A stretch of 37,472 nucleotides of DNA from NCBI GenBank assembly GCA_903892035.1, contig CAITGV010000003.1:1-37472 (forward strand), given 5' to 3'. The notes beneath the pieces are model-generated. The model ran no database searches, had not been told where the DNA came from, and saw only the letters and a list, made by a program, of their open reading frames with translations. Source of the DNA: an uncultured bacterium (GTDB lineage: Bacteria > Patescibacteriota > Minisyncoccia > Phycocordibacterales > UBA9973). Below are positions 19-37,472 of the stretch, piece after piece (position 1 is the first letter of the stretch; each line of letters begins with the position of its first letter). Position numbers and translations under genes: made by a program.

Positions 19-141
19 TAGCGTTTCCCCGCACTTTCCATTTTGGAAAGCTCTGTGCTTCGCACAGAGGCGCGTAGCGCGCGGGGAACGCTAGTGATTA
101 CGATTTTGAAAAAATGTTCGAGCTTGGTACAATAGGGACAC
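19..141 (-). repeat. Partial arm of the long structured inverted-repeat family (right-hand end of an element extending off the window start)
   Basis: 19-93 matches 9337-9411 (gcgtttccccgcac...ctctgtgcttcgcacagaggcgc...gcgcgcggggaacgct). The minus strand reads gtgt-N14-gctcgaac (141->116), like the other arms. Confidence 0.85.
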
Positions 142-4589: not shown

Positions 4590-4682
4590 AATACAACCCC
4601 ACCCTAGCCCTCCCCTTATCAAGGGAGGGAAAAATGCTATATATTTTATGCCCCCCTGATAAGGGGGTACGGGGGTTGTATT
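4590..4682. repeat. REP/MITE-like palindromic element
   Basis: Terminal inverted repeats aatacaacccc/ggggttgtatt; internal hairpins ccctcccc-ttatcaa-gggaggg and ccccc-tgataa-ggggg. Confidence 0.8.
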
Positions 4683-6733: not shown

Positions 6734-6802
6734 AAATGTCTAATGACTAATTTCTAAAATCTATTTTTGATTTATTAGATATTAGATATTGTGATTTAGT
6801 TA
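6734..6802. repeat. Inverted arrays of degenerate heptamers
   Basis: aaatgtc/taatgac/taatttc/taaaatc followed by ttagata/ttagata/ttgtgat/ttagtta. Confidence 0.5.
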
Positions 6803-6815
6803 TTGTATTATTATT

Positions 6816-6891
6816 GCCGCTTTAGCTCAGTTGGTAGAGCAACGCTTTTGTAAAGCGAAGGTCCTCGGTTCGAGTCCGAGAAGCGGCTCCA
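6816..6891 (+). tRNA. tRNA-Thr (anticodon TGT)
   Basis: gccgctt/aagcggc acceptor stem, ttTGTaa anticodon loop, ggttcgagtcc T-arm, encoded CCA. Confidence 0.97.
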
Positions 6892-6932
6892 GTGTAAAAC
6901 TAAAAAGGTTCTGTCAACGCATAACTAAAACA

Positions 6933-6965
6933 AAGGTCCTCGGTTCGAGTCCGAGAAGCGGCTCC
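6933..6965 (+). repeat. 33-bp direct repeat of the tRNA-Thr 3' end (att-like)
   Basis: Identical to 6858-6890 (aaggtcctcggttcgagtccgagaagcggctcc). Confidence 0.95.
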
Positions 6966-6997
6966 TTAACCCGACTTTTTGGTTGGGAATCAAGAAA

Positions 6998-7293
6998 GGA
7001 GTGTCTTTACGATTCCGCTCGAACTTACTTTATCAAAAATTTGTGAGAATATCCACAAGCGTTCCCCGCGCGCTGAAGCGCCACCACGCGAAGCGTGGTG
7101 CTTCTGCTGAAGCAGAAGTGCGGGAAACGCCCTGCACTCCGCCACAATGTTTTGGGGGCAAAGGAGGCGAAGTGCAGAAATGCGGAACGCGAGCGAAATT
7201 TTGCGAAATGCTGGGGGTTTGGGGGAAAGTATTTCGCAAAATTCGCTTCGCGTACTTCCTGATTTTTTGGCGGGATTTTGGCGGGGCGGGCTA
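6998..7293 (+). repeat. Left long inverted repeat of island 1
   Basis: Reverse-complement match to 9174-9471. The inner 108 bp (7186-7293) is identical to the reverse complement of 9174-9281. Confidence 0.95.
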
Positions 7294-7331
7294 AAAAAAT
7301 TAAATTGTTCTTTTTAACAAAAGTAGTTTAT

Positions 7332-7934
7332 TTATGTTTGACAATTCTCAATAATTTTTTGCATTTTAATCCTACACTTATCTAAAATTTTTGATTCCCA
7401 TTCAGAATTTTTTAGCTCTCCAACATATAGATTTAATTCCTTATGTAACTCATATAAAAATTTAGTCGCGTTTATTGTCTTATTTTCTAAAAGAGATCCT
7501 CCTCTTTTTATTCGCCATCCGCCAGTTGTCTCACCTTGGTGTAAAATACCACAACGAATATGTTTGTAAAAATCTTTTTTAGAAAACTCTTTTAATGTAA
7601 TAGTCTTATTAAAAAAATCGTTAAATATTTTATCACCCCCTTTCGGGGTTTTATCCCACCCATTCTTAAATGATTGAAGTGCTTCTATACAAAGACAACA
7701 GTTCGCCATTATTGCAAATCCGCTTTTATATTCTTTCTTAAAAATATTATTCTCAAAAGTAAATGGTTTAAGATACCTACCATACAATCTACAAAAAATC
7801 ATTTTGGCTATGGCTGATTTATTTTTTTCGTTAACAAATTGCTCATAATTTTTAATCGTTACATCTTTACCATTTTCAAGTGTTGCTAAAATAATATCAT
7901 CGGTATTCGATTTATATTTTTTAGTTTTTATCAT
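7332..7934 (-). CDS. Hypothetical protein, possible HEPN-like (RxxxxH) domain
   Basis: 200 aa, helical, with IEALQSF and FYKHIRCGILHQ (R-x4-H). Confidence 0.6.
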   Translation of the reverse strand: MIKTKKYKSNTDDIILATLENGKDVTIKNYEQFVNEKNKSAIAKMIFCRLYGRYLKPFTFENNIFKKEYKSGFAIMANCCLCIEALQSFKNGWDKTPKGGDKIFNDFFNKTITLKEFSKKDFYKHIRCGILHQGETTGGWRIKRGGSLLENKTINATKFLYELHKELNLYVGELKNSEWESKILDKCRIKMQKIIENCQT

Positions 7935-7938
7935 TTTT

Positions 7939-9078
7939 TTATTTAGGCACTACCTTGAGAAAATCTGTTGCGAGTAGTATCGGAGTAGTATTACCTTGAT
8001 AGCCACCGTCTGTGTAAATATTGGAATAACTATATATACCAACAGTATAATCTCCCTCTTTAAGCGGTTTCCAAATTTTATTAAAATATATACCCGACGA
8101 AGATCCTATTGGGCAAAATTCTACTCCACCTCCATGGTCAGTGCCGTCATAATAAATAGATTCCTGTGTTGTCGGTAATGTCAATCTACCTTCCCATATT
8201 CGTACTGATATGCCACCATAGCCGTGAGTATTTGAATAAGTTCCATAAATTGCTGTAGATTCAGATGTTGATACCAGCGAACTTTTATCAATTGTTGCAG
8301 TCGTAGCAACCCCCTCCTTATAAGAAGTATTGGGGAGGTTTGTGCAGTCATTTTTGAATTGTTCAAGTGTATATGAGGACGGCGATTGTGAAATATATTT
8401 TGGGACATTCGTATTGGTATTTTGTGTTGGAACAAAAGAATTTATATCATTCACCGAAGAATTATCAGAATATAGATTATTTTGATTTTGTTGAATATCT
8501 GGTGTTGAATTAGAATTTCTTGACAATGTTACAACAAGAGTAATTATTGAAATAATTAAAAATGCAATTGCCCAATTTACTTTTTGTTGTTCTTTATCAT
8601 TTTCCTTTTTAATAACTGAAAAAATATGTGCAATAATTTTTGATATTACCAGTCCTCCTAATAACTGTCCTAGCAAACGAGGAAAAGAAACCCCGCCAGA
8701 GCTAAAGGAAGAAATAATTTCAATCAATAATCCAATGCTAATTAAAACCCAGAAAAGTTGTGATTTATTTATTGAAAAATTTGTACTGTCGTTGTTTATT
8801 GGCTTATTAGAATTTTGAGAACTTGTTTTATTTTTATTATCCTCATTTTCTTTTTGTTTATTTGATTCCTGGCGTGGTTTATAGTTAAGATCATATTGTG
8901 CCTTGTTTTTATCGTTAGAAAGAATACGGTATGCCTCGTTGATTTCTTTGAATCTCTTCTCCTTGCCTTGATTTTTATCAGGGTGAAATTGGTGCGCGAG
9001 AATATGATACGCTTGCTTTATATCCTCTTTTGAGGCATTTTGCGTAATTCCTAGAATATCGTAATAATCTTTTTGCAT
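7939..9078 (-). CDS. J-domain (DnaJ-type) membrane protein with C-terminal extracytoplasmic domain
   Basis: KDYYDILG...FHPDKN...FKEINEAYRILS, then three hydrophobic segments and a Ser/Thr/Asn-rich region. Start placed at ATG 9078, just after the promoter. Confidence 0.88.
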   Translation of the reverse strand: MQKDYYDILGITQNASKEDIKQAYHILAHQFHPDKNQGKEKRFKEINEAYRILSNDKNKAQYDLNYKPRQESNKQKENEDNKNKTSSQNSNKPINNDSTNFSINKSQLFWVLISIGLLIEIISSFSSGGVSFPRLLGQLLGGLVISKIIAHIFSVIKKENDKEQQKVNWAIAFLIISIITLVVTLSRNSNSTPDIQQNQNNLYSDNSSVNDINSFVPTQNTNTNVPKYISQSPSSYTLEQFKNDCTNLPNTSYKEGVATTATIDKSSLVSTSESTAIYGTYSNTHGYGGISVRIWEGRLTLPTTQESIYYDGTDHGGGVEFCPIGSSSGIYFNKIWKPLKEGDYTVGIYSYSNIYTDGGYQGNTTPILLATDFLKVVPK

Positions 9079-9087
9079 ATAGCCTTT

Positions 9088-9116
9088 ATTATACAAAAAT
9101 AAGCTTAAAAAGCCAA
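9088..9116 (-). promoter_or_regulatory. Sigma70 promoter of the J-domain gene (near-leaderless)
   Basis: TTGGCT, 17-nt spacer, TATAAT, 9 nt before the ATG. Confidence 0.6.
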
Positions 9117-9173
9117 TTTATTTAGATACCATAAAATTATGAAAATTTTATGGTATCAATTTTTTCTTTTCCA

Positions 9174-9471
9174 TAGCCCGCCCCGCCAAAATCCCGCCAA
9201 AAAATCAGGAAGTACGCGAAGCGAATTTTGCGAAATACTTTCCCCCAAACCCCCAGCATTTCGCAAAATTTCGCTCGCGTTTCGCATTTGCATTTCTGCA
9301 TACCACATCCTTTTTAAAAGATTGTGTGGTGTGCAGAGCGTTTCCCCGCACTTCTGCTTCAGCAGAAGCTCTGTGCTTCGCACAGAGGCGCTTCAGCGCG
9401 CGGGGAACGCTTGTGGATATTCTCACGAATTTTTGATAAAGTAAGTTCGAGCGGAATCGTAAAACCACTCC
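9174..9471 (-). repeat. Right long inverted repeat of island 1
   Basis: Reverse-complement match to 6998-7293. Confidence 0.95.
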
Positions 9472-9480
9472 AATAAAAAA

Positions 9481-10167
9481 CTACTTTGTTATTGTATTAG
9501 TCTGCGAAGGAATAGGTTTTGGAAGTAAATCTTTAAGAGCAGGCATTGCCTTCTCGATGTCATCTAGACTTGTAAAACCACTAAATATCTCTTTATTGAT
9601 GATGAGCGCAGGAAGTGTATTTGGTACTTTATAGGTTGAAATTAATGCTTTAATTGCAGAAAGATCTAGATTATAGTCAAAAGAGTAAACTCTAAGTCCA
9701 GGATATTTCTCACGAAGCGCAGTGAGTACATAACCCTGATTTACACAATCAGTACAATCAGTTTTTGTTGAATAGAAATATAGTACGAATACAGATTTAA
9801 AACCACAACGCTGACTAATTTTCTCCATCAAAAGATAATCTTTAATTTCTAGAAGTGAATAATATTTTTTCAAATATGTAACATCAGAATTATTTCCAAG
9901 ATTTTGATCACTATATTCAATTTTTTCTCCAAGGGAATTCAACTGATCAGAAAGGAAAGATTTATCTACATCCTTACAAGACAAATCTTCAAGTAAAGAA
10001 AACTGCGTTTCAGATGAAAGAATATCGAGAGAAATATTGTCCTGAATGCTTTTCAATTGTTGAATTTTTTTACTACCAAAATAGTTGCTTACATAACCAG
10101 CAGTTACAAAAAGCAAAGCTGAAATTATAAAAACAAGAAGATATTTTTTCCAATCAGGAGTTTGCAT
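9481..10167 (-). CDS. Membrane-anchored hypothetical protein with thioredoxin-like C-terminal domain
   Basis: N-terminal TM helix; VLYFYS..DCTDC (CxxC) and a downstream LPALIIN cis-Pro-like strand. Confidence 0.7.
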   Translation of the reverse strand: MQTPDWKKYLLVFIISALLFVTAGYVSNYFGSKKIQQLKSIQDNISLDILSSETQFSLLEDLSCKDVDKSFLSDQLNSLGEKIEYSDQNLGNNSDVTYLKKYYSLLEIKDYLLMEKISQRCGFKSVFVLYFYSTKTDCTDCVNQGYVLTALREKYPGLRVYSFDYNLDLSAIKALISTYKVPNTLPALIINKEIFSGFTSLDDIEKAMPALKDLLPKPIPSQTNTITK

Positions 10168-10170
10168 AAA

Positions 10171-11436
10171 TTACAAAAGGTTTCTTTCCGCTGCCCAATT
10201 CCCTGCACCGCGTGAAAAAATTACATTATATAAAGCTTTTCCGAGCCAAAAGGGTGCAACTGTAAATGATAAAATATAAAAATAAACAATACTCATATTT
10301 GGTCGCATTTTACCTTCAGCCATATTTTGCCCAATTAAAAGTGAAGTAATAAGCGTTACTGCAAGCAAAACTGCCACAATATTTATCAAACTTGTATTTA
10401 TATAAAACAAACTAAAATTTCCCATGTGAAAAAAATTATGAAAACCGATAATTTTAAATTCAGTTATCTTATGAATTGTAAAAGTAATTATCTGATATAC
10501 AAACATTAACGATATATATATTACTGAGATAATTGAAATTATTCCGGCAGGCAAAGCAAAAAAACCAATATTGCCATATTTTTTCTTAAACAATAATTCT
10601 TTATAATCTTGAACGTTTTTCAAAAAACCATATATCCAACGCACACGTTGACGGTAAAGTTTAGCCACTGTGTTTGGAGTCACAGTATAGACATAAGCAT
10701 CTGGACAATGCTCAATTTTATAATGATTTTTTTGCATTCTTAAAGCAATTTCTTGATCTTCTGTATTGTGTGCTTTTCGAAATGGACCAATATTTTCAAA
10801 TACTTCTTTTCTATATATTGAAAAAGGCCCAGGTGTAACATACACTGCGCCAATAAAACTTTGAACTTTTTTCATGAAAATACCAAAATTATAGTCTGCT
10901 CGCTGGGCTTTTTGAATTAAATTTTTTGGTTCATAGGCAATCACAGCAGGACAAACAGCCATCGCACTTGAATCCTTTTGAAAATAAGTCATCATACGAT
11001 TCAGGGCTTCTGGGTGCACAAAAGAGTCAGCATCAAGCCCACCAATAAATTGACCACGAGCTTTTGAAATACCAAAATTCATTGCAGTATGTTTACCTCC
11101 ATTTTCTTTTTTATATACATCAATATTTGGAAAATTTTTAAAACTCTCTAATACCAAAAAAGTATTATCTCTTGAGCCATCGTCGATGAGCATTATTTGC
11201 AATTTGTCTTGCGGATAATGTAAAGCAAGCAATGATTCAACGGTTCTCTTTACTGTTTTTTCTTCATTATAGCAAGGCACAATAATAGAGACCTGAGGAT
11301 AATACGGCAATGTAATATTGTCTTTTCGAATTTCAATATTTTTTCTTTTTTCTAAAAATGTAACGATCAAAAACACCTGTATATATACGGCAAAAAAGGT
11401 TAAAATATAGAAAATTACATCTGGAATATGTGACAT
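10171..11436 (-). CDS. Processive GT2 glycosyltransferase (PgaC/IcaA/cellulose-synthase-like)
   Basis: IVPCYNEE, DDGS, DAD, TED and QRVRW motifs, flanked by TM helices. Confidence 0.92.
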   Translation of the reverse strand: MSHIPDVIFYILTFFAVYIQVFLIVTFLEKRKNIEIRKDNITLPYYPQVSIIVPCYNEEKTVKRTVESLLALHYPQDKLQIMLIDDGSRDNTFLVLESFKNFPNIDVYKKENGGKHTAMNFGISKARGQFIGGLDADSFVHPEALNRMMTYFQKDSSAMAVCPAVIAYEPKNLIQKAQRADYNFGIFMKKVQSFIGAVYVTPGPFSIYRKEVFENIGPFRKAHNTEDQEIALRMQKNHYKIEHCPDAYVYTVTPNTVAKLYRQRVRWIYGFLKNVQDYKELLFKKKYGNIGFFALPAGIISIISVIYISLMFVYQIITFTIHKITEFKIIGFHNFFHMGNFSLFYINTSLINIVAVLLAVTLITSLLIGQNMAEGKMRPNMSIVYFYILSFTVAPFWLGKALYNVIFSRGAGNWAAERNLL

Positions 11437-24195: not shown

Positions 24196-24248
24196 GAGAT
24201 TTGAAAGTGTGTATAACTTTACAATCGTGAGGCAAGGCCTAACGATGA

Positions 24249-24404
24249 AATACAACCCATCCCTAACCCTTCCCTTATCAAGGAAGGGAAACTGCTAAGC
24301 ATTTTCTGTATTTGCATTTCTCCCCTCTCCTTTACAAGGAGAGGGGTTGGGGTGAGGTTCTTACCTTCCTTGATAAGGGAAGGTGCCCGAAGGGCGGATG
24401 GGTT
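24249..24404. repeat. Composite REP/MITE-like element
   Basis: 24249-24296 is the exact reverse complement of 25633-25680. Further hairpins: cccctctcc/ggagagggg and ccttcc-ttgataa-gggaagg. Confidence 0.85.
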
Positions 24405-25587: not shown

Positions 25588-25680
25588 AATACAACCCCCT
25601 TAATCCCCCTTATCAGGGGGAAATAAATGCTAAGCAGTTTCCCTTCCTTGATAAGGGAAGGGTTAGGGATGGGTTGTATT
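25588..25680. repeat. REP/MITE-like palindromic element
   Basis: Terminal repeats aatacaaccc/gggttgtatt; inverted relative of 4590-4682. 25629-25680 is identical to 29134-29185. Confidence 0.88.
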
Positions 25681-29074: not shown

Positions 29075-29185
29075 ATAACCTATCGTTCATGATAGGCACC
29101 TGTAGACGGCCCCCCATCAAGGGGACTTTAAAAGCTAAGCAGTTTCCCTTCCTTGATAAGGGAAGGGTTAGGGATGGGTTGTATT
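29060..29185. repeat. REP/MITE-like element between convergent genes
   Basis: Terminal repeats aatacaaccca (inside the capA 3' end) and tgggttgtatt (touching the smc stop codon). Confidence 0.8.
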
Positions 29186-31452
29186 TATTTCGCAATCTGC
29201 ACCGCCTCATCAAGCTTGATTGACAGAAGTTTGGACCCTCCATCGGCACCGATGGTGATACCGTAGAGGATGTTTGCGCGTGACATAGTCTCACGGTTGT
29301 GGGTGACGACGATGAGCTGAGAATATTTTGAAAGGTTTTCAAGCATATCGCCATATTTGCGAGAGTTTGATTCGTCGAGCGCAGCGTCGGTCTCATCGAG
29401 CACGAGAAATGGCGGAGGGTTTACCTGTGAGATAGCAAACAGTAGCGCTATGGAGGTAAGCGAACGCTCACCACCGGAAAGCATATGTAAATCTTTTACC
29501 TTTTTATGAGGAAGCGAAACGTTGATTTCAATTCCCCTTTCAAATTGCAATTCTGCATCTTCGTCGACTTCAGAGTCTTCGTCTTCCGTCATATTTGGAC
29601 GCTTGTGTTCAACGACGACAGAAAGAAAAGCACTTCCCCCGCCAAACATAAGAGAGAAAAATTCTTGAAATTGTTTATTAATTTTTTCTACTCCAGTTTT
29701 GAAATCCATATCAAGATTTGATTTCAATTCACGAATTAAAATTTGAAGTGACGAAATGCTTGCTTTTATGTCTTCTACTTCATGCGCAAGAAAAGCATCG
29801 CGCGCAACTGCTTCATCGTGCTCTTTTATGAGCTCTCCTCCGCTTCCTCCTAAGTCTTCAAGTTTAATTTTTATTCTTTCAATTTTTCTTCGCAAATCTT
29901 GTTGAATTATTTCTACATTTACTCCCTCTGCATCAGAAAAATTTTCCACAAATACGCATGACTCTGGGCCTGAGAGCACACTCGCCTCTTTGAGTTCATT
30001 GTCGAAGTCAAAACGTGCCTTATTTATTGCTTCATCTTCTAGTGAAAGAATTTGAAGTTTTGATGAAAGCTCATTTTTCTTGGCTTTCACTTCATACAAA
30101 GCTCTCTCTGCATCACGCATTTTATATGCTTGTTCGTCAGCTTGCGCACGAATTTTTTCTATTTCTTCACGAGTTTTATTTTCATCTTCTTCAATTTTTA
30201 CAAGTTCGGCAGTCAATGCATCTTTTGCAGAAATATATTCTTGCATTTTTTCCTGATTATTATTTGTATCATTATTTTCTACAATTCTTTCACTGCGATT
30301 TTTCTTTGCTGATACAAAAGTATCAAGATTCTCTTTCATTGAATTTAAAGAATAGTGAATTACTGCCACATTGTCTTCCATAAGAGCACTTTCAATTAAC
30401 ACTGTAAGTTCTTCGAAAAGAACTTCCACTTCTTCAAATGGTACAGCTTGTGACTTAATTTCTGCTGGTGCACTTTCTTTTTGATTTGAAAGAGCTTCGA
30501 GCATTCCTTCTAGGCGACCAATTTTTCTCCCTATTTCATCTTTTACAGAACGCAAAGAGTAAAGTGTTCGCTCGTGATTTGCAATCTCATTATTGAAAGA
30601 ATTTTTTAATGCTTGGGAATTGTCATCTTGATATTCATTTAATTTTTGCTCAATCTCAAGGAGTGCATCTTGGATAGTTTTTTTCTGCTGAGAAAGTTCC
30701 AAACTTTTTGTTTTTATGCGTGTAGCTTCACGAGAAAAATATTCACGATAATAGTCTTTGAGTTCAAGGCGCATGCCACGAGCTTTTTCAAATTTTTCTA
30801 CCTGCTTTTTCAAAAAAGTAATATGCGGAGCAATTTCTCGACGAAGTGATTCTACTTCTTTTAAATTTGCTGTAGTTTTTTCCAATTTTCTTTCACTTTC
30901 TTTTATTTTATATTGATAAACTTTAAGTCCCAAAGCGTCTTCTATCATCACACGACGGTCTTTTACTGAAGCATTCAATACTCGGTCTGCTTCACCTTGT
31001 GAAATGATATGGTGACTCGAACTACCAATATTTACTGACGCCAGAAGTTCCATAATGTCTTTCAATCGAACTTCTGTGCCATTTATCTGATACACATTTT
31101 TTCCATCACTATATACTTCGCGAGAAATTGTAATTTCATCATAATCTAAATGTACATCTTTTAGTCCTCCAGAAAAAGAAAAAACTTTTTTGCTATTGTC
31201 GAAAGACATTGATACTGATGCACGCGAAAGAGCACTCAAATGTTTTGAGCCTTTAAAGATGAGGTCTACTCCGCCTTTTCCGCGAAGTGATTTCATCGAC
31301 TGCTCTCCGAGCACAAATCGTATTGATTCAACAATATTTGATTTACCAGAACCATTTGGACCCACTACAGAAGTGATAGGGCTATTGAAAACCAAAGGTG
31401 TTTTCTTTGCGAATGATTTAAAACCGTTTAATGTAAGACTTTTTAAATACAT
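29185..31452 (-). CDS. smc: Short SMC-family ATPase
   Basis: Walker A GPNGSGKSN, Q-loop IISQG, LSGGERS signature, Walker B FLVLDETDAALD; downstream of rnc. Confidence 0.88.
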   Translation of the reverse strand: MYLKSLTLNGFKSFAKKTPLVFNSPITSVVGPNGSGKSNIVESIRFVLGEQSMKSLRGKGGVDLIFKGSKHLSALSRASVSMSFDNSKKVFSFSGGLKDVHLDYDEITISREVYSDGKNVYQINGTEVRLKDIMELLASVNIGSSSHHIISQGEADRVLNASVKDRRVMIEDALGLKVYQYKIKESERKLEKTTANLKEVESLRREIAPHITFLKKQVEKFEKARGMRLELKDYYREYFSREATRIKTKSLELSQQKKTIQDALLEIEQKLNEYQDDNSQALKNSFNNEIANHERTLYSLRSVKDEIGRKIGRLEGMLEALSNQKESAPAEIKSQAVPFEEVEVLFEELTVLIESALMEDNVAVIHYSLNSMKENLDTFVSAKKNRSERIVENNDTNNNQEKMQEYISAKDALTAELVKIEEDENKTREEIEKIRAQADEQAYKMRDAERALYEVKAKKNELSSKLQILSLEDEAINKARFDFDNELKEASVLSGPESCVFVENFSDAEGVNVEIIQQDLRRKIERIKIKLEDLGGSGGELIKEHDEAVARDAFLAHEVEDIKASISSLQILIRELKSNLDMDFKTGVEKINKQFQEFFSLMFGGGSAFLSVVVEHKRPNMTEDEDSEVDEDAELQFERGIEINVSLPHKKVKDLHMLSGGERSLTSIALLFAISQVNPPPFLVLDETDAALDESNSRKYGDMLENLSKYSQLIVVTHNRETMSRANILYGITIGADGGSKLLSIKLDEAVQIAK

Positions 31453-32156: not shown

Positions 32157-33053
32157 TTATTTACTAATTATTTCTATAGCTTTTGTAATAAGTGAAAGCA
32201 CATCGTCGTAAATTTTCAATTCTGCAACTTCTGCAAGTGTAAACCAGCGGGCATCGTCGAGTCCGCCAGAAACTTCCAATTGAAGTGGTTCGTACTTTGC
32301 TTCAGCCAAGAAAAAAGTAACTTGTTTACGAATTTTCCCATCTGTTGGGTGCTTGGCAATGTATTCGCTTTCACCAAGTTTTTCTTTAATCACAATATCA
32401 ATACCAATTTCTTTTTTTAATTCTCGTACTGCACCCATCTCGGCATCTTCACCTTCCTCAATTCCCCCTTTTGAAAGCGTCCAGTAGCCAAAAACATCAT
32501 GCACAAATGCTAGATAAATTTCTCCTTCGTGCTTCGCATATACTACTGCACCTGCCTTTTTTTCAATAGGTAATGATTCTAAATCAAGAGGTTCGTCGGC
32601 CATTTGTCTTTTACTTTTTTCATCTTTGCCCGGCTCGCCAAGCTCTTTGTAAACTGCACCGAGAACCCCATTTACAAATTTACCACTTGTCTCACCGCCA
32701 AAACTTTTTGCCAATTCGATAGCTTCATTGATTGCAACTTTTGGAGGAACTTGTGTGCGATCACCAAAAAGTAATTCAGCCAAACCCATGCGCAAAATAT
32801 TCCTGTCTACAACAGAAATTTTTTCAACAGGCCATTCTGGCGCTGCTTTTGTGATAATTTCATCTACAATATTTATTTTTGTGACCACTAGATGCGCCAA
32901 CTCTTTAATAAAGATTTCATCATCAAGACCAGGACCAAATTCACTTTGGTTGCGGTCGATTATCTCATCGATAATGCCGTCTATCTTGCCACGGAAATCC
33001 CACTCAAAGAGCGATTGCAATGCTATTGACCTGGAAAGGTGCCGATTTGCCAT
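32157..33053 (-). CDS. nusB: NusB fused to a C-terminal NUDIX domain
   Basis: N-terminal RHLSR..ALQSLF, VDRNILR, INEAIELAKSFG and KFVNGVL; C-terminal WTLSKGGIEEGE..GAVRELKKEIG. Confidence 0.93.
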   Translation of the reverse strand: MANRHLSRSIALQSLFEWDFRGKIDGIIDEIIDRNQSEFGPGLDDEIFIKELAHLVVTKINIVDEIITKAAPEWPVEKISVVDRNILRMGLAELLFGDRTQVPPKVAINEAIELAKSFGGETSGKFVNGVLGAVYKELGEPGKDEKSKRQMADEPLDLESLPIEKKAGAVVYAKHEGEIYLAFVHDVFGYWTLSKGGIEEGEDAEMGAVRELKKEIGIDIVIKEKLGESEYIAKHPTDGKIRKQVTFFLAEAKYEPLQLEVSGGLDDARWFTLAEVAELKIYDDVLSLITKAIEIISK

Positions 33054-33391: not shown

Positions 33392-33685
33392 GAGTCCCTC
33401 TTAAACAAGGCTCGAACTTACTTTAGCAAAAATTCGTAAGAGTACAAACTCTAGCTAAGTGGTACGCTCCACGACCGTCGTTCATCCGAGTTCATACTAC
33501 GCTCGCACTCTGTGCCAAATCTGTCGCCCGCTTCCGATTGAGTACAATCGCCTACTGGGTCAATCGGGAGTACCCTCACGATGTCCGCCCTGTCACGGAT
33601 ATTTTTCTGCTGAAAAATTCCGCGACCCCGACTCGGCTCGTCAGCCTCCGTCTCTAAAACGCTCCGAGCACTCGCGTTTTAGCCC
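33392..33685 (+). repeat. Left long inverted repeat of island 2
   Basis: 33423-33685 matches the reverse complement of 37237-37472. Begins gagt-N14-gctcgaacttacttta, like the island 1 arms. Confidence 0.93.
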
Positions 33686-33905
33686 TCGCCATCCCCACTC
33701 CACGTTTTGCATATGAGAGTAAGTGGTGTCGCTTTCGCTTCTGTACTTCAGTGACTTCGACAACGTCGGCGCTCATCCGTTCGCCATGGACGCTCCTAGC
33801 GGAAATGTCCGAGGCGGAGATGCGAATGCTTGCCCCAGTCTCCGCTTGAGTACAAGCGGAGACTCCCACCCGTGCGCGCAGGCAGGTGCCTCCCTTATTT
33901 TAAAA

Positions 33906-34379
33906 CTAGATTTTAGAATACGAAACCCCTTCTCCAGTCTTTGAATTCTGTTTGATTTTGTTTTCCTTTTTTAGTATCTCTAAATATCGAGTTGCGGTTG
34001 CATCAGATGCATGCAAAAGTTTCTCGACTTCGTCGTTTGTGATACTTGTTCGCTTCGCGAACAAGGTCATGAGTAAATCAAGTTTCTTTTGTTTCCGAGA
34101 CTGGATAGCACTTCTCGCTTTTGCGAGAAGTGAGCGGGCAAGATCGCGGGGAGAGATACTTGAAGACTGCGGAGGCTTCGCCTCCGCAGTTGGTTGAGGT
34201 TGAGATACTGGTTCGCCTAACGGCTCACTGACTGGAGCAAACGGCTCATTTACGCCCACTTGAGCCGTTTCGGTTGTAGGAGTTGGAATGGATTCAGGAG
34301 GAGAAATTGGGTCGGAGACTGCGCCTGACGGCACAGTTGAGGGAGAGGTTTGTGGGGCTTGGGATTGGTCTGGGGGCAT
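33906..34379 (-). CDS. Pro-rich protein with C-terminal winged helix-turn-helix
   Basis: ITNDEVEKLLHASDATATRYLEILKKENKI is a DeoR-like HTH; the N-terminus is low-complexity. Confidence 0.75.
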   Translation of the reverse strand: MPPDQSQAPQTSPSTVPSGAVSDPISPPESIPTPTTETAQVGVNEPFAPVSEPLGEPVSQPQPTAEAKPPQSSSISPRDLARSLLAKARSAIQSRKQKKLDLLMTLFAKRTSITNDEVEKLLHASDATATRYLEILKKENKIKQNSKTGEGVSYSKI

Positions 34380-34471
34380 AGGTAGAGTATATCAAAGTTA
34401 ATATATTAGAAAAAGAAAAAGCTCGAACATTTCTGTCCGAGCTTAATTTTTTGATTAAAGATTTATGTTTA

Positions 34472-35380
34472 TTAAATCTTTTTGTTTACCCACCACTTCA
34501 CTGTAGCTAGTGAAGCTTTTCTTCGATTAATCATTGTAGGTATGCCGAATCGAATTAATATAAACGAGACGACAACTTCAAGAATAGTATAAATCCATAT
34601 GCCCAAAGGTGAGCGAAAACCCGATATCCCATTTCTGTCTCTTAAACATAATCCATATGGCGTTTTCCAAACATCGAATTCATTATTGGATAAATAACCA
34701 TTATCTAAATCAATCGTTTGATCAACTCTCTCAACAAATAAATCTTGTTTAAGATTATTCCTTGAAAATAGTGACACGATAAAGTCATTACCCGTTAGAC
34801 TTTTTACAGTATCAAATCCATTAGATACTTTACTTATTTCACCTCTACTACCTGAGAAAAAGTTTAAATTGTTAATATAGAGAAAACTCAAAGGTAACAA
34901 GCACAACATGATTCCAATCAGTCTAACTGGAATGGTTGAGTTTCTTGCTTTAAAGATTCCGTCATTAAACAATTGTTTTCCTCTGTTGAATAAAAGAAAG
35001 CTAAAGTACCAAACCGTACCGACTGATAATGCTAGTAGTCCGTAAGATTTACTACTCAAGTACATTTCTCGCATATCAACGCCTTTTATTTTGGCAATGA
35101 TAAACAGAGTTGCAATACCAAGACTTGCCATACCGATAAAAATACCAGTGAGGCTACACATCAGGAATGCGGAATTTCTTCCAATTCCTTTTTCCATTTT
35201 TACAATTTCATTATTGACTACATCTGCCATAAGAGCAGAGCCAATAGCAAAAGTGATTACAAGACCGCATGCAGCGATATTGCTTAGTAAGTTTGACAGG
35301 GCAATGTTTCCTACTACGAAGGAAGAAATGCCAACGATCATTGTGATCGCGAATACGATGAGAACAATTTTACTTTTCAT
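34472..35380 (-). CDS. Hypothetical multi-pass membrane protein
   Basis: 302 aa with about six hydrophobic segments. Confidence 0.75.
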   Translation of the reverse strand: MKSKIVLIVFAITMIVGISSFVVGNIALSNLLSNIAACGLVITFAIGSALMADVVNNEIVKMEKGIGRNSAFLMCSLTGIFIGMASLGIATLFIIAKIKGVDMREMYLSSKSYGLLALSVGTVWYFSFLLFNRGKQLFNDGIFKARNSTIPVRLIGIMLCLLPLSFLYINNLNFFSGSRGEISKVSNGFDTVKSLTGNDFIVSLFSRNNLKQDLFVERVDQTIDLDNGYLSNNEFDVWKTPYGLCLRDRNGISGFRSPLGIWIYTILEVVVSFILIRFGIPTMINRRKASLATVKWWVNKKI

Positions 35381-35510
35381 TTTTTTTTACTTATTTAATT
35401 ATTATTAGTTTATTTAATTACGTTACTTTATGCTCCGCTTGGAAGGACAAAGTAACGTAATTAACTACCAATAAAAACAGTATTTTCAAAGAACCCTTAT
35501 ACTTACTTAT

Positions 35511-35540
35511 ATTATAGCATATATAAGGCATAAAAGTCAA
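35511..35540 (-). promoter_or_regulatory. Sigma70 promoter of the 302 aa membrane protein gene
   Basis: TTGACT, 18-nt spacer, TATAAT with a TG extension. Confidence 0.65.
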
Positions 35541-35544
35541 TAGT

Positions 35545-35584
35545 AAAGCAAAAGTACCTTGTATTTACAAGGTACTTTTGCTTT
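35545..35584. terminator. Intrinsic terminator after the coiled-coil gene
   Basis: 19-bp perfect inverted repeat aaagcaaaagtaccttgta/tacaaggtacttttgcttt. Confidence 0.8.
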
Positions 35585-35633
35585 CTAAGTGACTTGGAGC
35601 TGTGCTTAGTACTACTAATATGTAATTTTAAGA

Positions 35634-37109
35634 TTATTTCTTCTTTGAAACCTCGATAATCACTTTTTGTGCTTCTTCAAATTTTTTCTTTGCTTTATTG
35701 TATATATCAAGTATTTCTTGCTTTTCTTTTGAAAACTCTCTTGTTTTAACTTGTTCTATATAAGTCTCTAATTTTTGTACCAACTCGCCAATCGTTATGT
35801 CATTTTGAACTCCGCCAATTTTCTCAAACTTTTTAGTTAAAAGATTTTCTTCATAGCCTGGAATTTCCCTTATCAACTTTTCAACACCTGACAAGTCTTT
35901 GGAAAGACTTTCTTTCTCTTTATAGAACTTCTCAGCATTTTCCTTATCTTCAAAACGAGCAATTTGTCCTTCTAAATATTCCTTACGACTGTTCCATTTT
36001 TTCTTTCCAAATATACCACCTAGTGTACCAGGCTCATTTTTTAGATGTTCTTCAAGTTCTTTGCTAACTTCAGTCCATTTTTTTCTATCTTCCGTTGACA
36101 AAAAATTTCGTGAAGTTTCTCCCCAACTTTTTTGAGCCTTTTCATATGCTTCATGCTGAGACATTGGCATAATTTCGTAATCATTTGTCCACAGCTTTTC
36201 TTCGCTATCTTTTATTCCTTTTTTGAAGTCAGGCAGATTTAAGGACAAATAAATTATATCCTTTTTCTCTTTTTCAATAGAATTCTTTTCGGTTTCAAGC
36301 GCGCCGAGTGCATTGTAGTTACCAACAGTGTCGCCAAACGTATTACGAGTATTTGCCAGTATAACAGTCATTTCTATTTGTGGTTCAACAAAATTACGCA
36401 GAAGTTTTTTTGTTTCTTCATTAAGTCCGCGAGGATCCTTATCTATGATTTTCAACACAGACTCTTTAAGAAGCTCTGTTATTTCTTCAGGGGAATTTTG
36501 CTGCAATACTCTTTTTAACTTATCAAAATATATGTTACCGCTCTCCCATGTTCCTTTCTTGAATTTATCTACATCCACGTAACCATAGCTAACTTGTAAC
36601 AGCTCTTTCTCTATCGCTTGTCTTTTTTCTTCATGAGCCTTTTCTTTGCCCTCTTTTGTTTGCGAAAAAAGTTCGTTAACTTGCTTTTCTTTTTCAGGAA
36701 TAGAAGTTTCAAGACTTTTTATTTCTTCATTTAAATTACTTACTTCTTCTTGCAGATTTTTCCACTCTGTTTTTTCACTAGAAAAAACTTCGTCAAAACC
36801 TTCTTTGGTGTGCAAAATCTTCTCAACTTCTTCGTCTTGGCGAGCTTCTTCAACTGCTTTGTGTCCTGTTTTAATAATACCTCCTCGTTGTGATTTTATT
36901 TCAGTTAAACGTTTCAAAATTTCATCTTTGCGCGTCAATAGACCAGAAAGAGCTTGTTTTTCGGTGTTGTATTCAGCAACTCTTTGTATTTCGGCTTCTG
37001 CTTCACTCGTCTGTCTCTGATTTTTCTCATTTTGGCGCTTTTCTTGCTCCTTTTGCTTAAGGGCTTTAATCTTGGCAAGGCCTGATTCATTTTGAGTCAC
37101 ATTTTCCAT
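35634..37109 (-). CDS. Hypothetical Glu/Lys-rich coiled-coil protein
   Basis: Long ORF. Start placed at ATG 37109, downstream of TTGCAA-17-TACAAT (37148-37120). Confidence 0.8.
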   Translation of the reverse strand: MENVTQNESGLAKIKALKQKEQEKRQNEKNQRQTSEAEAEIQRVAEYNTEKQALSGLLTRKDEILKRLTEIKSQRGGIIKTGHKAVEEARQDEEVEKILHTKEGFDEVFSSEKTEWKNLQEEVSNLNEEIKSLETSIPEKEKQVNELFSQTKEGKEKAHEEKRQAIEKELLQVSYGYVDVDKFKKGTWESGNIYFDKLKRVLQQNSPEEITELLKESVLKIIDKDPRGLNEETKKLLRNFVEPQIEMTVILANTRNTFGDTVGNYNALGALETEKNSIEKEKKDIIYLSLNLPDFKKGIKDSEEKLWTNDYEIMPMSQHEAYEKAQKSWGETSRNFLSTEDRKKWTEVSKELEEHLKNEPGTLGGIFGKKKWNSRKEYLEGQIARFEDKENAEKFYKEKESLSKDLSGVEKLIREIPGYEENLLTKKFEKIGGVQNDITIGELVQKLETYIEQVKTREFSKEKQEILDIYNKAKKKFEEAQKVIIEVSKKK

Positions 37110-37236
37110 AGATGCCGAAATTGTAGCATTTTCCAAAATGTGTTGCAATTTTTTATCCACCGCCCGCCCCTCCCGCATCGCCCATACGAATCAAAAAGAA
37201 ATCCCGCCGACTCAAAGAAGAATGGAAAAGCGATGC

Positions 37237-37472
37237 GGGCTGAAATGCGAATACTTGGAGCATTTCAGAGACGGAGGCTGACGAGCCGAGTCGGGGTCGC
37301 GGAATTTTTCAGCAGAAAAATATCCGTGACAGGGCGGACATCGTGAGGGTACTCCCGATGAGAAGCGGGCGACAGAATTAGCACAGAGTGCGAGCGTAAT
37401 ATGAACTCGGATGAACGACGGTCGTGGAGCGTACCACTTAGCATTGTTTGTACTCTTACGAATTTTTGCTAA
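37237..37472 (-). repeat. Right long inverted repeat of island 2 (truncated)
   Basis: Reverse-complement match to 33423-33685. Confidence 0.93.

Follow-up and report, generated by a model that had tools for sequence, protein, structure and literature searches.

In phage Mu (Gin and the G segment), phage P1 (Cin), and Salmonella (Hin), a serine invertase gene, read from a promoter at the repeat, lies beside or inside a segment that is bounded by inverted repeats. Integron attC sites are single imperfect hairpins with extrahelical bases, one per cassette, which stand in arrays beside a tyrosine integrase and act as a folded single strand. In the terminal repeats of parvoviruses and adeno-associated virus (AAV) and in the telomeres of Streptomyces, an outer palindrome encloses smaller ones, flips are possible, and inverted copies lie at the ends, while repetitive extragenic palindromic (REP) elements are thought to act both at the DNA level, through binding of gyrase and other proteins, and at the RNA level, as 3' stabilizers. 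Here we describe a hairpin-rich repeat in a 37,472-nucleotide (nt) stretch of DNA from an uncultured bacterium of the candidate phyla radiation (CPR; contig CAITGV010000003.1 of assembly GCA_903892035.1), which we call the window. The window holds three copies of a fold of 72 nt that has the shape of a four-way junction, and we conclude with high confidence that this fold is a nested DNA palindrome and one module of an inverted repeat of ~300 nt (an arm) that bounds a gene cassette and its cargo. As the best explanation overall, to which we give roughly an even chance, we propose that the junction belongs to a boundary-repeat palindrome that acts as a DNA-level barrier in a spreading family of cassettes.

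As in the Gin, Cin, and Hin segments, a serine recombinase gene here adjoins a segment of 1.5 to 3 kb that is bounded by inverted repeats, and this gene is read from the outward promoter of the arm. In contrast to those segments, the repeats are 130 to 320 nt long and hairpin rich instead of being 26- to 34-bp crossover sites, the enzyme is a large serine recombinase of 490 to 600 amino acids (aa), the cargo consists of unrelated accessory genes and not of alternative gene halves, and we found no opposite-orientation pair of one segment. The arms are like integron attC sites in being cassette-associated candidate recombination sites in which structure rather than sequence is conserved, and they differ in having perfect stems, four nested helices, and two inverted copies per cassette; no recombinase domain of the phage integrase (tyrosine) type was found among the open reading frames (ORFs) scanned near arms. 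Nested palindromes, flips, and inverted copies at both ends are shared with the parvovirus and AAV repeats and the Streptomyces telomeres, but those repeats terminate linear replicons that have replication proteins of their own, whereas the arms are internal to the chromosome, have three inner hairpins, and adjoin a promoter. Like REP elements and their composites (BIMEs and REPINs), the arms are intergenic G+C-rich palindromes that recur between transcription units, but they nest their palindromes in a four-way junction, form a 300-nt unit with a promoter, and occur as inverted pairs around cargo. A first-pass annotation of the window, made from its letters alone, had allowed for a match to a REP family; we looked for one and found a unit of 290 to 320 nt, with a 72-nt palindrome and two to three hairpins, compared to ~20 to 40 nt for REP. 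By Pfam search, no RAYT (Y1 HUH) transposase was seen among 27 + 101 ORFs within 2 kb of arms or among the 34 ORFs of the window. The arms also do not fit miniature inverted-repeat transposable elements, which are noncoding, shorter than ~800 bp, and flanked by a target-site duplication: they lie 2.2 to 3 kb apart, enclose genes, and have no such duplication at the eight pairs that we compared by eye.

The three junction copies in the window belong to two cassettes, which we call elements A and B, and are bounded here by a covariance model described below (the intervals 9337 to 9411 and 19 to 93 of the first-pass annotation include one or two flanking bases).

7059 to 7130, forward strand: junction copy 1, left arm of element B, 93.7 bits with the covariance model; the hairpins inside its outer stem are GCGC-TGAA-GCGC, CACCACGC-GAA-GCGTGGTG, and CTTCTGC-TGAA-GCAGAAG
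9338 to 9410, reverse strand: junction copy 2, right arm of element B, 103 bits; middle hairpin allele CTCTGTGC/GCACAGAG
21 to 91, reverse strand: junction copy 3, right arm of element A, 87.5 bits; third hairpin allele CTTTCCA/TGGAAAG

In all three copies, which are 71 to 73 nt long, the outer stem GCGTTCCCCGC/GCGGG(G)AAACGC closes three abutting hairpins, and copies 2 and 3 are reverse complements relative to copy 1. This arrangement had been proposed in the first-pass annotation and is borne out both by the sequence and by folding: the same four-way junction, with an outer stem of 11 pairs and inner hairpins of 4, 8, and 7 pairs, is the minimum-energy and the centroid structure on all six strands with RNA and with DNA parameters. 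The predicted energies are -44 to -49 kcal/mol with RNA parameters (z scores of -5.4 to -7.8) and -29 to -32 kcal/mol with DNA parameters (z scores of -5.7 to -9.0), and in each of the 12 folds, none of 200 shuffles folded as well. We also recovered the proposed compensatory change at four pairs of the middle hairpin, which reads CACCACGC-GAA-GCGTGGTG in copy 1 and CTCTGTGC-GAA-GCACAGAG in copies 2 and 3, with both sides changed at four positions, and the switch of the neighboring third hairpin from CTTCTGC/GCAGAAG in copies 1 and 2 to CTTTCCA/TGGAAAG in copy 3, with pairing retained. The outer-stem 11-mer (at most one mismatch) occurs four times in the window, compared to 0.11 expected, and GCGAAGC occurs 10 times, compared to 3.0 expected; none of 100 shuffles reached either count. 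Three of the 10 GCGAAGC occurrences are hairpin tips, and two, read on the opposite strand, fall inside a stem of these same arms. The stability attributed to the GCGAAGC mini-hairpin agrees with the excerpted text of a 2026 review (PMC13037366). A covariance-model search of the window found no junction beyond the three copies.

The junction does not match a described RNA family. A search of the whole window with Rfam 15 at the gathering threshold gave three tRNAs only, and E-value searches of 6780 to 9520 and 1 to 600 gave subthreshold noise over the arms (best score, 21 bits against a cutoff of 50), in line with what the first-pass annotation had supposed. We rejected a tRNA-like cloverleaf, as the outer stem has 11 bp, the helices abut, and neither ARAGORN nor Rfam makes a call there, and the sequence that follows the junction is mixed on either strand, unlike that after a rho-independent terminator. 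A blastn search with the left arm of element B gave no match in phage and plasmid collections, our literature searches found no description of the junction or the arm, and the element appears to be undescribed so far.

To follow the fold beyond the window, we scanned genome contigs with a pattern that fixed the outer stem and left the interior free, keeping a 2-kb flank per locus. This gave 72 matches (labeled L### below), 50 of which have the three-hairpin interior and are true copies, while the other 22 are chance matches in G+C-rich loci without the fold. By record title, the 50 copies come from Patescibacteria/CPR lineages, including Nomurabacteria, Paceibacterota/Paceibacteria, Minisyncoccia, Zambryski-, Lipton-, Gottesman-, and Daviesbacteria, and "Saccharibacteria," except for one titled archaeon. 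A covariance model built from 53 copies found 55 in the window and the 50 loci together, the only additions being L035 1 to 62 and a weak match at L010 1616 to 1684. The latter is a divergent second junction (42 bits; region of interest, L010 1616 to 1684 and 1751 to 1825) in direct orientation to the main copy, at a distance of 385 nt; tRNA-Thr(cgt) stands between the two junctions, the first arm is truncated, and the locus looks like tandem arms around a tRNA. Of the 50 loci with arms, 21 extend less than 2 kb beyond the arm on one or both sides. We rejected an assembly artifact, because this organization reappears around other cargo in the records of many assemblies made independently.

We analyzed pairing in an alignment of the 55 copies (33 distinct) that was fitted to the structure of the covariance model. 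Paired cells made up 97.3% of the total, the shuffles giving 89.8 ± 0.4%; both partners changed at 13 of 30 pairs (shuffles, 7.8 ± 1.0) and in 74 cells (shuffles, 18.1 ± 3.1); and the covariation score was 0.234, compared to 0.096. None of 500 shuffles was as high on any of these four measures, and sliding the pairing partners lowered pairing to 28 to 62%. The covariation that had been anticipated for a larger alignment is thus present. The first and middle hairpins each come in two main stem alleles and the third in four; among the 55 copies, the middle hairpin has the perfect CTCTGTGC form in 38 and the perfect CACCACGC form in 10, with few intermediates. Since the differences between the window copies are alleles that circulate among many genomes, they stand for few independent events. 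What had been read as compensatory mutations therefore holds in the sense that pairing is conserved through sequence change, and does not hold as a series of separate mutations in this genome. The evidence for conserved palindromy is good, and that for the number of independent events is weak.

Comparison of arm pairs showed that the junction is only one part of a longer repeat. In all eight pairs, the inverted repeat spans from -49 to -68 through +232 to +253 relative to the junction start, with 87 to 99.7% identity. Seven pairs on single contigs lie 2.2 to 3 kb apart, and their outer ends and promoters always face away from each other; in the eighth (L035), the partner is cut off by the contig end. 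Within the window, copies 1 and 2 sit in inverted repeats of 307 to 309 nt that are 91 to 95% complementary (6998 to 7304 and 9163 to 9471). The arms of the window are 85 to 98% identical at the nucleotide level to arms in other records, which indicates either horizontal spread or very strong constraint. The arms are also mosaic, in that the two B arms of the window are 87% alike and differ by whole swapped hairpins. The modules of these arms are as follows.

6998 to 7304, forward strand: left arm of element B (inverted-repeat pairs)
6998 to 7058: outer module of the left arm
7059 to 7130: junction of the left arm
7132 to 7177: variable hairpin of the left arm
7188 to 7252: long hairpin of the left arm
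7263 to 7268: T run of the left arm
~7270 to 7291: G-rich box of the left arm
9163 to 9471, reverse strand: right arm of element B, with the same module set as the left arm
7044 to 7052, forward strand: TGAGAATAT, a weak extended -10-like motif read from the sequence, pointing inward six bases before the junction

From outside to inside, an arm consists of an outer module of ~50 to 60 nt, the junction, an optional hairpin, a long hairpin, a G-rich hairpin, and a promoter-like site for the cargo at the inner edge (promoter scan). In 32 of 51 arms, the outer module has an outward-facing, sigma-70-like promoter at one fixed place (TTG/TTCnnn, 16 to 18 nt, TAnnnT), a count that comes from reading the listed pattern matches, as the pattern alone hit spurious hexamers in arms of the window type. 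The -10 element occurs as TACAAT, TATAAT, TAAAAT, TAGAAT, or TAATAT, with positions 1, 2, and 6 constant, and 14 nt separate the -35 hexamer from the start of the junction behind it. A promoter consensus scan of two loci (L062 and L040) scored the outward promoter at 10/12 with a TG. The GCTCGAAC motif that is common to the window arms is the spacer of this outward promoter. The other 19 arms include five with a TTTAAT-like -10, one with a CTGGAA -35, four of the element C subtype (see below), and nine of a B subtype to which both B arms belong, in which the outward -10 is degenerate and an inward TGAnAATAT lies six bases before the junction. The interior of the optional hairpin differs between arms while its pairing is kept, as is also seen between the two arms of element B, where the variable hairpin (9290 to 9337 in the right arm) and the junction middle hairpin differ and still pair. 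The long hairpin is perfect, with T-rich runs on both sides and a run of five or six T's that starts 4 to 11 nt after it. Between L070 and L058, which are two arms of one element, the 17-nt loop of the G-rich hairpin (~100 to 135 nt after the junction) is inverted on an unchanged 10-bp stem. When we compared the outward promoters with the nearest outer ORF, 30 of 49 were codirectional and 13 head-on (6 gave no data; P = 0.014), and 2 of the 13 head-on ORFs are of 77 aa and precede a codirectional recombinase gene.

Taken together, these data lead us to propose that the arms are boundary repeats of a horizontally spreading, orientation-neutral family of cassettes. In an A+T-rich genome, the stacked perfect G+C-rich palindromes would work as DNA, or equally on either strand, and would separate the cargo from the outward promoter as a structural barrier; they might, for example, form hairpins or cruciforms where divergent promoters leave negative supercoils behind them, or in single-stranded DNA. 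The outward promoter would restore expression of flanking host genes or of the recombinase, and palindromy would be kept by selection, aided by repair between stem sides and by conversion between arms. A boundary or insulator role for the junction itself is a tentative part of this proposal that we put somewhat below an even chance. Several findings bear on the choice between DNA and RNA. Only 2 of 976 junction cells are G-U pairs. The helices abut with zero or one unpaired base between them, the unpaired bases are not conserved, and the loops vary, flipping from GAA to TTC in 2 of 55 copies and from TGAA to TTCA in 1 of 55. Placed between the long hairpin and the -35 hexamer, the junction of most arms is not covered by a predicted transcript, and most arms have no promoter directed at it. 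The scarcity of G-U pairs, the loop flips, and the lack of an inward promoter in most arms favor a DNA element over an ordinary noncoding RNA, although not decisively. The earlier suggestion of a single-stranded DNA signal or a noncoding RNA is thus narrowed toward its DNA option; its picture of a stand-alone element or RNA gene does not hold, since the junction is one module of a ~300-nt arm.

A number of observations weigh against this proposal. In the alignment, which leans toward the structure of the model and is made of related copies, eight of 11 outer-stem pairs are invariant, a constancy that the search pattern imposed; the covarying positions amount to two to four alleles per hairpin; and further pair types number 16, below the 19.1 of the shuffles, all 500 of which were at least as high. 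The consensus scan called no terminator-like site in the arms of the window, L062, or L040, and the promoter scan lists no promoter in the outer modules of the window B arms, where outward promoters would in any case fire head-on into tRNA-Thr and into the genes at 9481 to 11436. There is no recombinase gene within the 2-kb flank in 36 of the 50 loci. Element C has arms without a junction, which shows that the junction is dispensable for an arm. The loops are purine rich on the outer-to-inner strand (GAA in 43 of 55 copies), and in folds of 41 distinct whole arms this strand has 299 G-U pairs, compared to 74 on the other, and is ~8% more stable in summed energy (-4376.6 and -4026.3 kcal/mol, respectively). 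These purine-rich loops and the G-U asymmetry are signs of a strand-specific role that a purely duplex role does not predict, although the G-U excess may reflect the G+T-rich composition of that strand. The constancy of the GC-GAA-GC tip across stem alleles likewise favors a strand-specific role. Finally, hairpin or cruciform formation, insulation, recombination at the arms, and inversion are all putative.

The strand asymmetry is what would be expected if the arm encoded an RNA element. In such a case, the weak extended -10 TGAGAATAT would start, at the first base of the junction, an inward small RNA or leader of ~200 nt that passes through the variable hairpin and ends at the long hairpin and its U run, from each arm of the window's subtype; alternatively, the reverse strand would form the 3' end of the cargo mRNA and protect it from exonucleases. 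We consider this unlikely. It accords with the inward motif that 9 of 51 arms, the two B arms among them, have 6 nt ahead of the junction, with the T5-6 run within 4 to 11 nt after the long hairpin, with an AGGAGG-like motif and first cargo ORF start ~273 nt from the junction in several loci, with the purine-rich loops and the 299 G-U pairs on the inward strand, and with the great stability of the junction as an RNA fold. However, the inward motif is missing from 42 of 51 arms and from the list of the promoter scan, the loops are variable and in some copies flipped, no Rfam family matches, and transcripts of the same sequence that were read inward from the two arms would run into the cargo genes. 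The near absence of G-U pairs from the junction and its lack of conserved unpaired bases also do not match the covariation of an RNA gene, and the G-U excess over the whole arm may be due merely to a G+T-rich strand.

The arms are also associated with a recombinase. In 14 of the 50 loci, a gene for a large serine recombinase of 490 to 600 aa lies just outside an arm, so that, as with the serine invertases, a recombinase gene adjoins the inverted-repeat-bounded segment. In 13 of these loci, the protein has the Resolvase, Recombinase, and zinc-ribbon Pfam domains of large-serine-recombinase islands; that of L053 has two of the three. The proteins are distant relatives of CcrB and XisF (best E value, 1.9e-34, at 119 bits compared to an NCBIfam cutoff of 900), and a ccrB-like recombinase is described as highly expressed in Paceibacteria and Doudnabacteria in the excerpted text of PMC9938205. 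The main type of recombinase gene, with 12 members, is always directed away from the arm; of the exceptions, one belongs to a copy with a flipped interior (L042) and the other, the divergent gene of L053, reads toward the arm. In all eight loci tested, the recombinase gene is bracketed by inverted repeats of its own, 74 to 243 nt long and 97 to 100% complementary except for a second 45-nt piece in L066 at 87%, and the repeat begins within ~5 nt of the outer end of the arm. Coordinates within three of these loci are given here, and L007, L011, L040, L044, and L066 have repeats of the same kind.

L005, 2122 to 2266 and 3816 to 3961: inverted repeats of the recombinase gene
L065, 2120 to 2285 and 3849 to 4014: inverted repeats of the recombinase gene
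L063, 2119 to 2361 and 3650 to 3892: inverted repeats of the recombinase gene

The distal repeat is the 3' coding end of the recombinase gene itself, from which it follows that the recombinase mRNA would have complementary ends of 74 to 243 nt and could be a target of RNase III. Perfect G+C-rich hairpins occur in these repeats as well; their loops are GAA, AAA, or TTC, and the one in L065 has a GCGAAGC tip. In six loci, the 3' end of the recombinase gene overlaps the 3' end of a convergent tRNA gene, and no direct tRNA repeats that could be attL and attR were found around the recombinase islands of six loci. The island of L004/L005 lies exactly between tRNA-Val(tac) and tRNA-Arg(tct), which are 62 nt apart in L072; L072 is not a clean empty site, as it has an arm on the other side of tRNA-Arg whose outward promoter faces that gene. 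CACC and TTAAAC, motifs at the candidate insertion junctions, were noted by eye only. The CcrA/CcrB and XisF islands likewise have distantly related recombinases, variable accessory cargo, and a fixed chromosomal site, the last being probable here. In contrast to those islands, the apparent sites here are tRNA 3' ends, the cargo lies in long structured inverted repeats with outward promoters, and the recombinase gene has its own inverted repeats, with its 3' end duplicated upstream in reverse.

This association raises the alternative that the arm is a substrate for recombination or replication, whose hairpins and Holliday-junction-like fold would be recognized when single-stranded or extruded. 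Such recognition would allow the large serine recombinase or an enzyme of the host to move or invert the cassette, or would prime complementary-strand synthesis after uptake or transfer. The recombinase cassette abuts the outer end of the arm in 8 of 8 cases tested and is present at 14 of 50 loci, its own repeats carry similar hairpins, and in L036 the arm runs straight into a tRNA 3' end at a TTAA, a sign of a site-specific junction. Both stem alleles of the middle hairpin retain the GC-GAA-GC tip, and an inverted pair supplies two signals on opposite strands. In RSF1010, ssiA and ssiB lie on opposite strands, an arrangement that the inverted arm pair resembles. According to the excerpted text of PMC13037366, mini-hairpins are placed at the phage G4 origin, at RSF1010 ssiA, and at phage N4 promoters, and we keep the single-stranded-DNA idea open for this reason. 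The arms resemble the G4 origin, RSF1010 ssiA/ssiB, and the N4 early promoters as given there in having the GC-GAA-GC tip on a longer stem, whereas the TGAA, TAAA, or AAAA loops of the other two hairpins depart from the mini-hairpin consensus in the table of that review (PMC13037366, in part). The arms also differ from these sites in being chromosomal, with no replicon, primase, or phage polymerase nearby, and no HUH nuclease, primase, or relaxase was found among the 128 neighboring ORFs scanned (27 + 101). The arms of element C have no junction, and the eight pairs have no target-site duplication. Serine recombinases act on duplex sites and are not known to need hairpins, the 12 main-type recombinase genes all point one way, and the same cargo was not found in both orientations. 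For these reasons, we regard a substrate role as improbable, at much the same level as the RNA element.

More speculative, and less probable than either of these, is the idea that the CPR has a new class of mobile, orientation-neutral cassettes in which the mobilizing machinery reads the folded DNA of the arm and not its linear sequence. The ~300-bp arms would then be extruded or single-stranded as Holliday-junction-like, GCGAAGC-tipped structures, with the recombinase or a host priming or resolving enzyme as the reader. By analogy, such a structure-addressed system would parallel integron attC while being built on a serine recombinase.

The least probable alternative, to which we give only a slight chance, is that the fold is a functionless by-product, a selfish or neutral palindromic repeat whose covariation is mutational and not selected, with quasi-palindrome template-switch repair and conversion between arms keeping the stems perfect. 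This would account for stems with Watson-Crick pairs only and discrete alleles almost without intermediates, for loop inversions between two arms of one element, for mosaic arms such as the B pair with its swapped hairpins, and for arms without a junction, but not for a four-helix layout that is kept in 55 copies from differently titled Patescibacteria classes at a fixed distance from the -35, for a GC-GAA-GC tip that is kept across alleles, or for the strong bias in loop polarity; moreover, long perfect palindromes are usually unstable unless something maintains them.

We then considered what the arms enclose and adjoin. Across the loci, the cargo differs from element to element and is accessory in nature (MazF-like, SET, S-adenosylmethionine decarboxylase, metallophosphatase, methyltransferase, NUDIX, and glyoxalase proteins, with many proteins of no family), while the outer flanks are core genes (ParAB, RF2-FtsEX, PheS, TsaD, GlmS, and L19) or tRNAs, the latter being very frequent neighbors of the arms. 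The orientation of the cargo relative to the recombinase varies between elements, and no cargo was found in both orientations with the same flanks in our sample. The right flank of element B (9481 to 11436) is syntenic with L071 at 52 to 58% protein identity while the arm subtype and cargo differ, showing that one site can hold different contents. The cargo of element B is as follows.

7332 to 9096, reverse strand: cargo of element B, 1.8 kb, two genes
7939 to 9096, reverse strand: gene for a 385-aa protein with an N-terminal J domain
7332 to 7934, reverse strand: gene for a 200-aa protein with no family match

The J domain was the sole match of Pfam and NCBIfam to the cargo of elements B and C, and the element B cargo has no relatives in the cargo of the 50 other loci. 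As this cargo encodes a J-domain protein and a protein of no family, we rejected, for element B, a transposon with its own transposase. The TGAGAATAT motif of the left arm, which the promoter scan of the window does not list, is mirrored in the right arm and restricted to the B-arm subtype. The B arms, which are of the subtype least like a promoter and face genes head-on, may be a decaying or differently wired copy in this genome. Outside the left arm lies tRNA-Thr(tgt) (6816 to 6891), and 24 nt farther on, before the arm, is a duplicate of its 3' half (6915 to 6965; 51 nt at 88%, including 33 identical nt). The ~32 nt that follow (6966 to 6997) resemble, in a comparison by eye, the start of the recombinase-gene inverted repeat of L007. 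From these resemblances, 6915 to 6997 may be the scar of a lost recombinase cassette beside the arm.

The body of element A lies before the start of the window, and junction copy 3 is the inner part of its right end. The promoter of this arm is aimed outward at tRNA-Leu (331 to 415) and tRNA-Lys (470 to 543).

106 to 133, forward strand: outward promoter of arm A (TTGAAA, 16-nt spacer, TACAAT), 14 nt from the junction

The region between this promoter and tRNA-Leu (136 to 330) has several hairpins, no notable ORF, and Rfam matches at noise level only. Directly after tRNA-Lys is a perfect palindrome of 27 + 27 nt (538 to 593) that has only weak, subthreshold Rfam matches and is probably a terminator.

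Element C, at the far end of the window, shares only the outermost part of its arms with element B, and no match to the junction was found in these arms with the covariance model. Its 157-aa protein, which partly matches a cargo ORF of L017, is the sole case of a relative of window cargo in the other loci.

33410 to 33685, forward strand: left arm of element C; the outermost ~35 to 45 nt are common with the B arms, and there is no junction
37237 to 37472, reverse strand: right arm of element C, which ends at the window end
33906 to 37178: cargo of element C, encoding three proteins (157, 302, and 514 aa) with no Pfam or NCBIfam family

At 33501 to 34000, G+C reaches 52%, compared to ~36% for the genome. 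The rest of the window is core genome of low G+C content, including rpoB, rpoC, and genes for sigma-70, primase, S2, EF-Ts, RNase III, and SMC, and also holds pilin-like genes: at 593 to 2699, five small genes with type IV secretion pilin (VirB2/TrbC-like) domains are followed by a gene for a solute-binding protein. One ORF at 32157 to 33053 fuses a NusB domain to a NUDIX domain. There is also a second, unrelated family of intergenic repeats of ~56 nt with the hairpin CCCTTCCCTTATCAAGGAAGGG, two copies of which, 98% complementary to each other, flank trmD and a KH-domain gene as inverted repeats.

4590 to 4632: copy of the CCCTTCCCTTATCAAGGAAGGG repeat family
24248 to 24304: copy of the CCCTTCCCTTATCAAGGAAGGG repeat family
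24361 to 24383: copy of the CCCTTCCCTTATCAAGGAAGGG repeat family
25625 to 25680: copy of the CCCTTCCCTTATCAAGGAAGGG repeat family
29120 to 29186: copy of the CCCTTCCCTTATCAAGGAAGGG repeat family

CPR bacteria have tiny genomes and are not yet genetically manipulable, and little is known of the ways in which accessory genes are acquired and exchanged among them. The 72-nt palindrome within its 300-nt arm is a searchable landmark for sites of accessory cassettes in CPR chromosomes, and it ties these cassettes to tRNA genes and to a large serine recombinase that is reported, in the excerpted text of PMC9938205, as highly expressed. If the arm is only a boundary repeat, it can still flag genomic islands and the places where assemblies of CPR genomes break into contigs. 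The junction itself would be an unusual natural example of conservation that acts on a branched DNA structure rather than on a sequence. If the arms are recombination or insulation modules, they would provide a natural toolkit of promoter, insulator, and recombinase for the CPR.

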